NCBI RefSeq assembly: GCF_053078305.1
Contig: NZ_CP166879.1
Strand: one strand, 5' to 3'
DNA length: 64,000 nucleotides
A model generated the notes under the pieces. That model was not told the origin of the DNA and made no database searches. It saw only the letters and a list, made by a program, of their open reading frames with translations. This document shows, piece after piece, positions 36,954-38,064 of the stretch (its first letter is position 1; each line of letters starts with the position of its first letter). A program made the translations under genes and the position numbers.

Positions 36954-36960
36954 CACTAAC

Positions 36961-36986
36961 GCCCGCACATTGCTGCGGGCTTTTTG
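36961..36986 (+). terminator. Intrinsic terminator of uspF
   Basis: GCCCGCA-cattgc-TGCGGGC followed by TTTTT. Confidence 0.7.
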
Positions 36987-37128
36987 ATTCATTTCGCAAA
37001 TGTGCTGACATTTTCCCCTCTAATCCGTACCATACACGCCACAGTTTTTATATCAGATTTCTTATGCTGGGCGTTCCGGCATGACGCATACTCTTCTGAT
37101 GCCATATAACGAATTGAGTCGCTTTTAA

Positions 37129-38064
37129 ATGTCGCAAAATCAAGAAATTAGCAAGAAAGAACAATACAACCTGAACAAATTACAAAAACGTCTGCGTCGT
37201 AACGTGGGCGAAGCCATTGCTGACTTCAATATGATTGAAGAAGGCGATCGCATCATGGTTTGCCTCTCCGGGGGTAAAGACAGCTATACCATGCTGGAGA
37301 TTCTGCGCAATTTGCAGCAAAGCGCGCCAATCAATTTTTCGCTGGTGGCTGTTAACCTCGATCAAAAGCAACCGGGCTTCCCGGAACACGTTCTGCCCGA
37401 GTATCTTGAAAAGCTGGGCGTTGAGTACAAGATTGTTGAAGAGAACACTTACGGTATCGTGAAAGAGAAGATTCCAGAGGGCAAAACCACTTGCTCACTG
37501 TGTTCTCGGCTACGTCGCGGTATCCTTTATCGCACCGCAACGGAACTGGGGGCGACGAAGATCGCGTTGGGCCACCATCGTGACGATATCCTGCAAACGT
37601 TGTTCTTAAATATGTTCTACGGCGGCAAGATGAAAGGTATGCCTCCGAAACTGATGAGCGATGATGGCAAACATATCGTTATTCGTCCGCTGGCCTACTG
37701 CCGCGAGAAAGATATTCAGCGATTTGCCGATGCAAAAGCGTTCCCGATTATTCCGTGCAACCTGTGCGGTTCACAGCCTAACCTGCAACGTCAGGTGATT
37801 GCTGACATGTTGCGTGACTGGGATAAACGTTATCCAGGGCGTATCGAGACGATGTTCAGCGCGATGCAGAATGTGGTGCCGTCGCATCTGTGCGATACCA
37901 ACCTGTTCGATTTCAAAGGCATCACCCACGGTTCTGAAGTGGTTAACGGGGGTGATCTGGCGTTTGATCGCGAAGAGATCCCACTACAACCGGCGGGCTG
38001 GCAGCCAGAAGAAGATGAAAATCAGTTGGATGAGTTACGGCTGAATGTGGTTGAAGTGAAATAA
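37129..38064 (+). CDS. ttcA: tRNA 2-thiocytidine(32) synthetase
   Basis: 311 aa; PP-loop motif CLSGGKDS and CxxC pairs. Confidence 0.9.

Follow-up and report, generated by a model that had tools for sequence, protein, structure and literature searches.

In the stretch of DNA analyzed here (64,000 nucleotides of contig NZ_CP166879.1, RefSeq assembly GCF_053078305.1; hereafter, the window), uspF is followed by ttcA on the same strand (Table 1). A preliminary description of this DNA had placed the two genes next to each other with a 175-bp spacer between them, as both the sequence and the ORF list confirm. UspF is identical to K-12 UspF at 143 of 144 residues in a protein alignment, and TtcA is identical to its K-12 counterpart at 306 of 311 (98%), with the alignment extending across 311/311 residues. 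TtcA scores 51.7 bits against PF01171 (cut-off 27), and the PP-loop motif SGGKDS and the CxxC cysteines (CSLC and CNLC) are intact in the translation of a full-length frame, whose 311 codons are as had been described; domain, cysteines and frame together mark the product as a PP-loop tRNA C32 2-thiolase. The terminator assigned to uspF is likewise as clean as had been described: a G+C-rich hairpin starts eight bases past the stop codon and is made up of seven pairs, six of them G-C, around a loop of six (36961-36980), and the folding energy of the terminator, -14.1 kcal/mol (z = -3.75), was not equaled by any of 200 shuffled sequences.

Table 1. Features of the uspF-ttcA locus, in positions of the window.
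Feature	Position	Strand	Remarks
uspF, universal stress protein F, 144 aa	36519-36953	+	Left chromosomal flank of the Rac site; Pfam Usp PF00582, E = 3.6e-31
uspF intrinsic terminator, GCCCGCA-loop-TGCGGGC followed by TTTTT	36961-36985	+	Terminator scan
uspF-ttcA spacer, exactly 175 bp, native DNA	36954-37128	+	Colinear with the K-12 uspF-ttcC spacer
ttcA, tRNA 2-thiocytidine(32) synthetase, 311 aa and stop, intact	37129-38064	+	Pfam PP-loop PF01171
43-bp stretch, imperfectly duplicated on either side of K-12 Rac and present in phage attP	37136-37178	+	Overlap of the two K-12 flanks
attB core, AAGAAAGAACAATACAACCTGAACAA, 26 bp, ttcA codons 9-17	37153-37178	+	Identical in the window, K-12 attL and K-12 attR

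The spacer presumably carries the native ttcA promoter and drives ttcA in this strain. A consensus scan for that promoter returned a single sigma-70-like candidate, CTGACA-17-TACCAT at 37005-37033, which is a weak match (9/12) that does not rise above the frequency found in shuffled sequence. The 175 bp contain no credible ORF, only chance ORFs of at most 51 aa that lie largely or wholly inside the spacer, while an antisense ORF of 100 aa touches it but sits mostly in uspF. An Rfam search of the spacer gave nothing at threshold, the sole match being to STnc310 (19 bits against a 40-bit cut-off, E = 0.48). Elsewhere in the window, five sRNAs exceed the Rfam gathering cut-off, namely FnrS (39831-39948, - strand), MicC (34900-35020, -), McaS (43326-43421, +), RydC (2170-2233, +) and a sok antitoxin (1459-1610, +); of these, FnrS, MicC and McaS stand at their annotated K-12 positions.

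In K-12 MG1655, the same two genes are separated by a prophage. The RefSeq record annotates the "cryptic prophage Rac" at 1411899-1434958, in an orientation of the region that is opposite to that of the window by blastn. On one side lie ttcA (1411013-1411948) and then intR, with the first 50 bp of ttcA inside the annotated prophage; on the other side lie a 51-bp ttcC pseudogene (1434958-1435008), the spacer and uspF. Positions 25938-37178 of the window are colinear with K-12 from ydbL through ttcC, and this left-flank alignment stops at K-12 position 1434959, the first base beyond the Rac annotation, which ends at 1434958. A second colinear stretch, positions 37136-51838, starts at codon 3 of K-12 ttcA. 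Thus, the window is colinear with both flanks of the prophage in the alignment of the ttcA start and spacer to the K-12 and Rac junctions that the preliminary description had proposed, and the two flanks, which are 23 kb apart in K-12, overlap here by 43 bp (37136-37178) with no DNA between them. At the far end of the second alignment, near 51835-51838, the window has no counterpart of the IS5 element located between ynaI and ynaJ in K-12, and the K-12 alignments on either side abut.

The statement in the preliminary description that Rac is integrated at the 5′ end of ttcA in K-12 agrees with the RefSeq annotation, with these alignments, with an attB feature in GenBank record KU052037 and with a study of Rac excision (Liu et al. 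2015, PMC4632033). Were Rac inserted at some other place in K-12, the adjacency of uspF and ttcA would be uninformative about the prophage; we found nothing in favor of such a location, all four of these sources point to uspF/ttcA, and the proposal is to be regarded as refuted, with practically no probability left to it.

No part of Rac was detected in the window. The interior of the prophage (K-12 1411949-1434957) gave no match to the 64 kb by blastn (E <= 1e-3) or tblastx (E <= 1e-4), and neither an intR-type integrase nor other Rac genes (recET, kilR, racR, stfR and others) were found at ttcA or elsewhere in the window. The ORF list places no integrase or phage ORF between uspF and ttcA, which, together with the missing match to the Rac interior, upholds the earlier statement that no such gene is present at this locus. 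The preliminary description had also named phage-derived sequence in the spacer as a finding that would speak against it, and none was found: the spacer is that of K-12 uspF-ttcC except for one base in a run of T, and its matches in a phage collection are to host flanks in two prophage-derived records. The other two matches from that collection fall within the ttcA coding sequence, one being to a third record, which includes ttcA as host flank, and the other to a 43-bp homologue in Escherichia phage PHB10, discussed below. Records ON032529.1 (Salmonella phage SPF_0923) and KU052037.1 (Escherichia phage Rac-SA53) include the E. coli uspF-ttcC flank at 98.7% identity, which represents host DNA in deposited phage genomes, and the assignment of SPF_0923 to a "Salmonella" host seems questionable.

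The description "Rac-free" holds for the ttcA locus and for the 64-kb window and does not extend to the whole strain, because Rac-like prophages have been reported at other sites, as in CFT073, where a Rac-related prophage lies at potB (PMC4632033).

Two segments of the window that do not align to K-12 (21526-25937 and 57003-58696) were considered as phage genes and rejected, since they consist of an intact ydbA autotransporter gene and additional hydrolase-like ORFs. The first belongs to a larger difference at 19673-25937, where 4.4 kb replace K-12 positions 1446202-1472161, a segment with feaR, feaB, tynA, the paa cluster, ynbG and the 5′ part of ydbA, disrupted in K-12 by IS2 and IS30; the strain is thus without the fea, tynA and paa genes at this position. 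The ydbA autotransporter ORF is intact here (19673-25567, - strand, 1964 aa) and has a PVPPDDGGDT tandem repeat near its N-terminus. At 56945-58347, two ORFs of 309 and 158 aa are found where K-12 has just the short ymjC and ymjD ORFs, and the 309-aa ORF resembles the neighboring 310-aa ORF (56013-56945) at the ycjY position.

Within the 43-bp overlap, three-way and five-way alignments delimit a core of 26 bp, AAGAAAGAACAATACAACCTGAACAA, which is shared without a mismatch (26/26) by the window, the K-12 ttcC-Rac junction and the K-12 intR-ttcA junction. On the 3′ side of the core, the window tracks K-12 ttcA while the ttcC copy enters Rac DNA; on the 5′ side, the window tracks ttcC while the K-12 ttcA copy has five substitutions. 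A search tolerating up to three mismatches finds the core a single time in the 64 kb, and the number of copies expected by chance is 0. The identical 26 bp are annotated as a misc_recomb feature, "attB", in the independent GenBank record of phage Rac-SA53 (KU052037.1). The preliminary description had assigned the attachment region to 36954-37230, a range that does contain the core, although the site itself lies within ttcA and not in the spacer.

The bases just 5′ of the core determine which N-terminus TtcA carries. TtcA of the window begins MSQNQEIS, whereas K-12 TtcA begins MQENQQIT, which is supplied by Rac. The first 17 residues encoded in the window show no difference from the ttcC reading frame, and all five diagnostic nucleotides 5′ of the core are of the host (ttcC) type (5/5). 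Residues 2, 3, 6 and 8 differ between the window and K-12 and account for four of the five differences in the whole protein. The MSQNQEIS N-terminus, which ttcC also encodes, is the ancestral form, and the statement that ttcA has its native 5′ end is borne out at each of these residues and bases. The fifth difference is far from the site and is the only one beyond the N-terminal four (Gly290 here, 37996-37998; Cys290 in K-12).

These same positions bear on the idea that a prophage once resident here decayed by non-specific deletion and left behind, as a scar, part of an integrase or a ttcA 5′ end of the phage type, as in some ExPEC. Remnants of this kind do exist: strain O18 (NZ_CP007275.1, 50-551) retains only a 231-bp piece of intR, beside a ttcA with a Rac-type 5′ end. 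In the window, in contrast, the spacer is colinear with K-12 uspF-ttcC, five of five bases and four of four residues are native, and there is no integrase or other Rac homology. The alignments, the native-type 5′ end and the lack of Rac homology refute the decayed remnant, to which we assign a negligible chance. In another strain, O55:H7 DEC5D (NZ_CP038386.1), an integrase fragment is followed by an unrecombined attP-like copy, and no ttcA is annotated or aligned beside it.

A phage-side counterpart of the site was found in PHB10 (MK524177.1, linear and entered as a complete genome). Its 43-bp homologue (86% identity, query 183-225) is situated 56 bp downstream of the integrase gene and includes a start codon and ttcA codons of the phage type, like K-12 attL; a homologue in this position after the integrase gene is as expected for attP, and we consider it the putative attP of this phage. 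Compared with the core, it has two mismatches and retains 14 bases in common, CAATACAACCTGAA (37162-37175). The 26-bp core is complete in the attL copies of K-12, OkiPb01686 and O18, and the PHB10 attP alone differs. Strand exchange must occur within the 26-bp core; the bases shared with PHB10 suggest that the crossover is most likely in CAATACAACCTGAA. The 43 bp at 37136-37178 are the part of ttcA that the phage swaps for its own copy. In strain OkiPb01686 (NZ_AP042529.1, 332-360), a variant Rac-like prophage provides yet another TtcA N-terminus, MQENQKNTK, and the replacement 5′ ends carried by these phages are therefore themselves polymorphic.

The 5′ end of ttcA with uspF upstream of it, the shared core, the contiguous flanks and the host-type bases 5′ of the core lead us to conclude, with very high confidence, that 37153-37178 in ttcA is an unoccupied attB for Rac-type lambdoid phages that integrate by way of the IntR tyrosine integrase. 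Nothing found in this analysis contradicts this explanation. Direct observations are the colinearity of the window with both K-12 flanks, the identical core, the native type of the 5′ end and the lack of Rac DNA in the window, and likewise how attB, attL, attR and attP are arranged and that a phage copy replaces the promoter and first eight codons of ttcA; for the chemistry of the recombination and the roles of IntR and XisR, we draw on the literature or on inference. The phage attP, located just downstream of the integrase gene, carries the beginning of ttcA, its start codon and first 17 codons, in a diverged version. Through recombination in the 26-bp core, the phage would come to separate ttcA from the native promoter and from the first eight codons, so that ttcA would be rebuilt with the phage-supplied 5′ end (MQENQQIT) while the original 5′ end would remain beside uspF as the 51-bp ttcC stub. 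In the E. coli strain represented by the window, this integration has never happened or has been exactly reversed, and uspF, its terminator, the 175-bp spacer and a full-length ttcA of the ancestral type are therefore contiguous. Published experiments are consistent with this scheme. In K-12, excision of Rac, which is mediated by IntR with the excisionase XisR, was shown experimentally to generate this attB and the four-residue change in TtcA; in addition, 14 strains whose ttcA is free of rac-like prophages carry the MSQNQEIS form, which was called ancient, and the change at the N-terminus alters fitness under carbenicillin (Liu et al. 2015, PMC4632033). By analogy with these K-12 experiments, the site in the present strain is putatively usable by IntR and XisR for integration and excision (PMC4632033).

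Both states of the site are common. When contiguity was defined as a single place covering at least 80% of a 1.7-kb query across the junction, uspF and ttcA were contiguous in 2487 of 5426 complete E. coli genomes (about 46%), and the K-12-type junction of the intR 3′ end with ttcA was present in 2913 of the 5426 (about 54%), an occupied count that takes in decayed remnants. These two classes add up to 5400 of the 5413 genomes that gave a match of any kind. The 1.7-kb query was matched best, at 99.8%, by O157:H7 strain TR01 (NZ_CP033605.1), where uspF and ttcA are contiguous. Because O157:H7 strains EDL933 and Sakai are reported to carry the prophages CP-933R and Sp10, respectively, in ttcA (PMC4632033), occupancy varies within the serotype.

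These frequencies bear on the history of the site. It is possible, though we are inclined to doubt it, that a Rac-like prophage was present in an ancestor of the strain and was later lost by precise excision through IntR and XisR, making the strain a cured lysogen. Excision is known to yield precisely the attB and the N-terminus seen here (Liu et al. 2015, PMC4632033), about 54% of the complete genomes have an occupied site, and occupancy differs even between TR01 and the two other O157:H7 strains. A site that was never occupied and one that was precisely vacated, however, have identical sequences, and among the best 15 matches of 22 kb to the window, all (15/15) are unoccupied, which indicates that any loss was not recent or strain-specific. 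A further proposal, which we consider improbable, is that the division into about 46% unoccupied and about 54% occupied or remnant-bearing genomes represents a maintained polymorphism, with selection on the function or regulation of TtcA acting beside phage dynamics. According to this proposal, the two states would differ in the TtcA N-terminus and in upstream control, by a native promoter in the spacer versus readthrough from the phage intR gene, and the window would constitute one example of the ancestral allele.

An empty Rac site in ttcA is an ordinary polymorphism that has already been described, and the 2015 paper covers integration at the 5′ end of ttcA, the change of four residues and the return of the ancestral form upon excision (Liu et al. 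2015, PMC4632033). What our analysis adds is limited to the coordinates of the core in the window and the population count (2487 versus 2913 among 5426 genomes). Beyond annotation, the consequence of the unoccupied attB is small: ttcA should be recorded as the ancestral allele, preceded by a promoter region of its own, and a ttcC pseudogene is not to be called. The locus is also a potential landing site for Rac-type phages.

Among known systems, the closest is the Rac site of K-12 itself (attL at intR-ttcA, attR at ttcC-uspF and attB regenerated in delta-rac strains; Sci Rep 5:16074), which has the same location, the same 26-bp core and both of the same flanks. The TtcA N-terminus of the window is that of TtcA′, the post-excision or "ancient" variant of K-12. 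The differences from K-12 are minor and comprise one synonymous base just 5′ of the core (37152, C here versus T in ttcC), the single base in the T run of the spacer and the substitution at residue 290 of TtcA, G here versus C in K-12. The attB feature of Rac-SA53 consists of the same 26 bp as the window core, and the Rac-SA53 and PHB10 copies are phage-side or lysogen-junction copies. As a class, the site resembles those of temperate phages that enter the end of a host gene and bring a replacement gene end with them, such that the target stays intact. In the present case, the replaced end is the 5′ one, together with promoter and start codon, and, as a result, the TtcA protein of the host is altered at four amino acids and the gene presumably comes under new transcriptional control.
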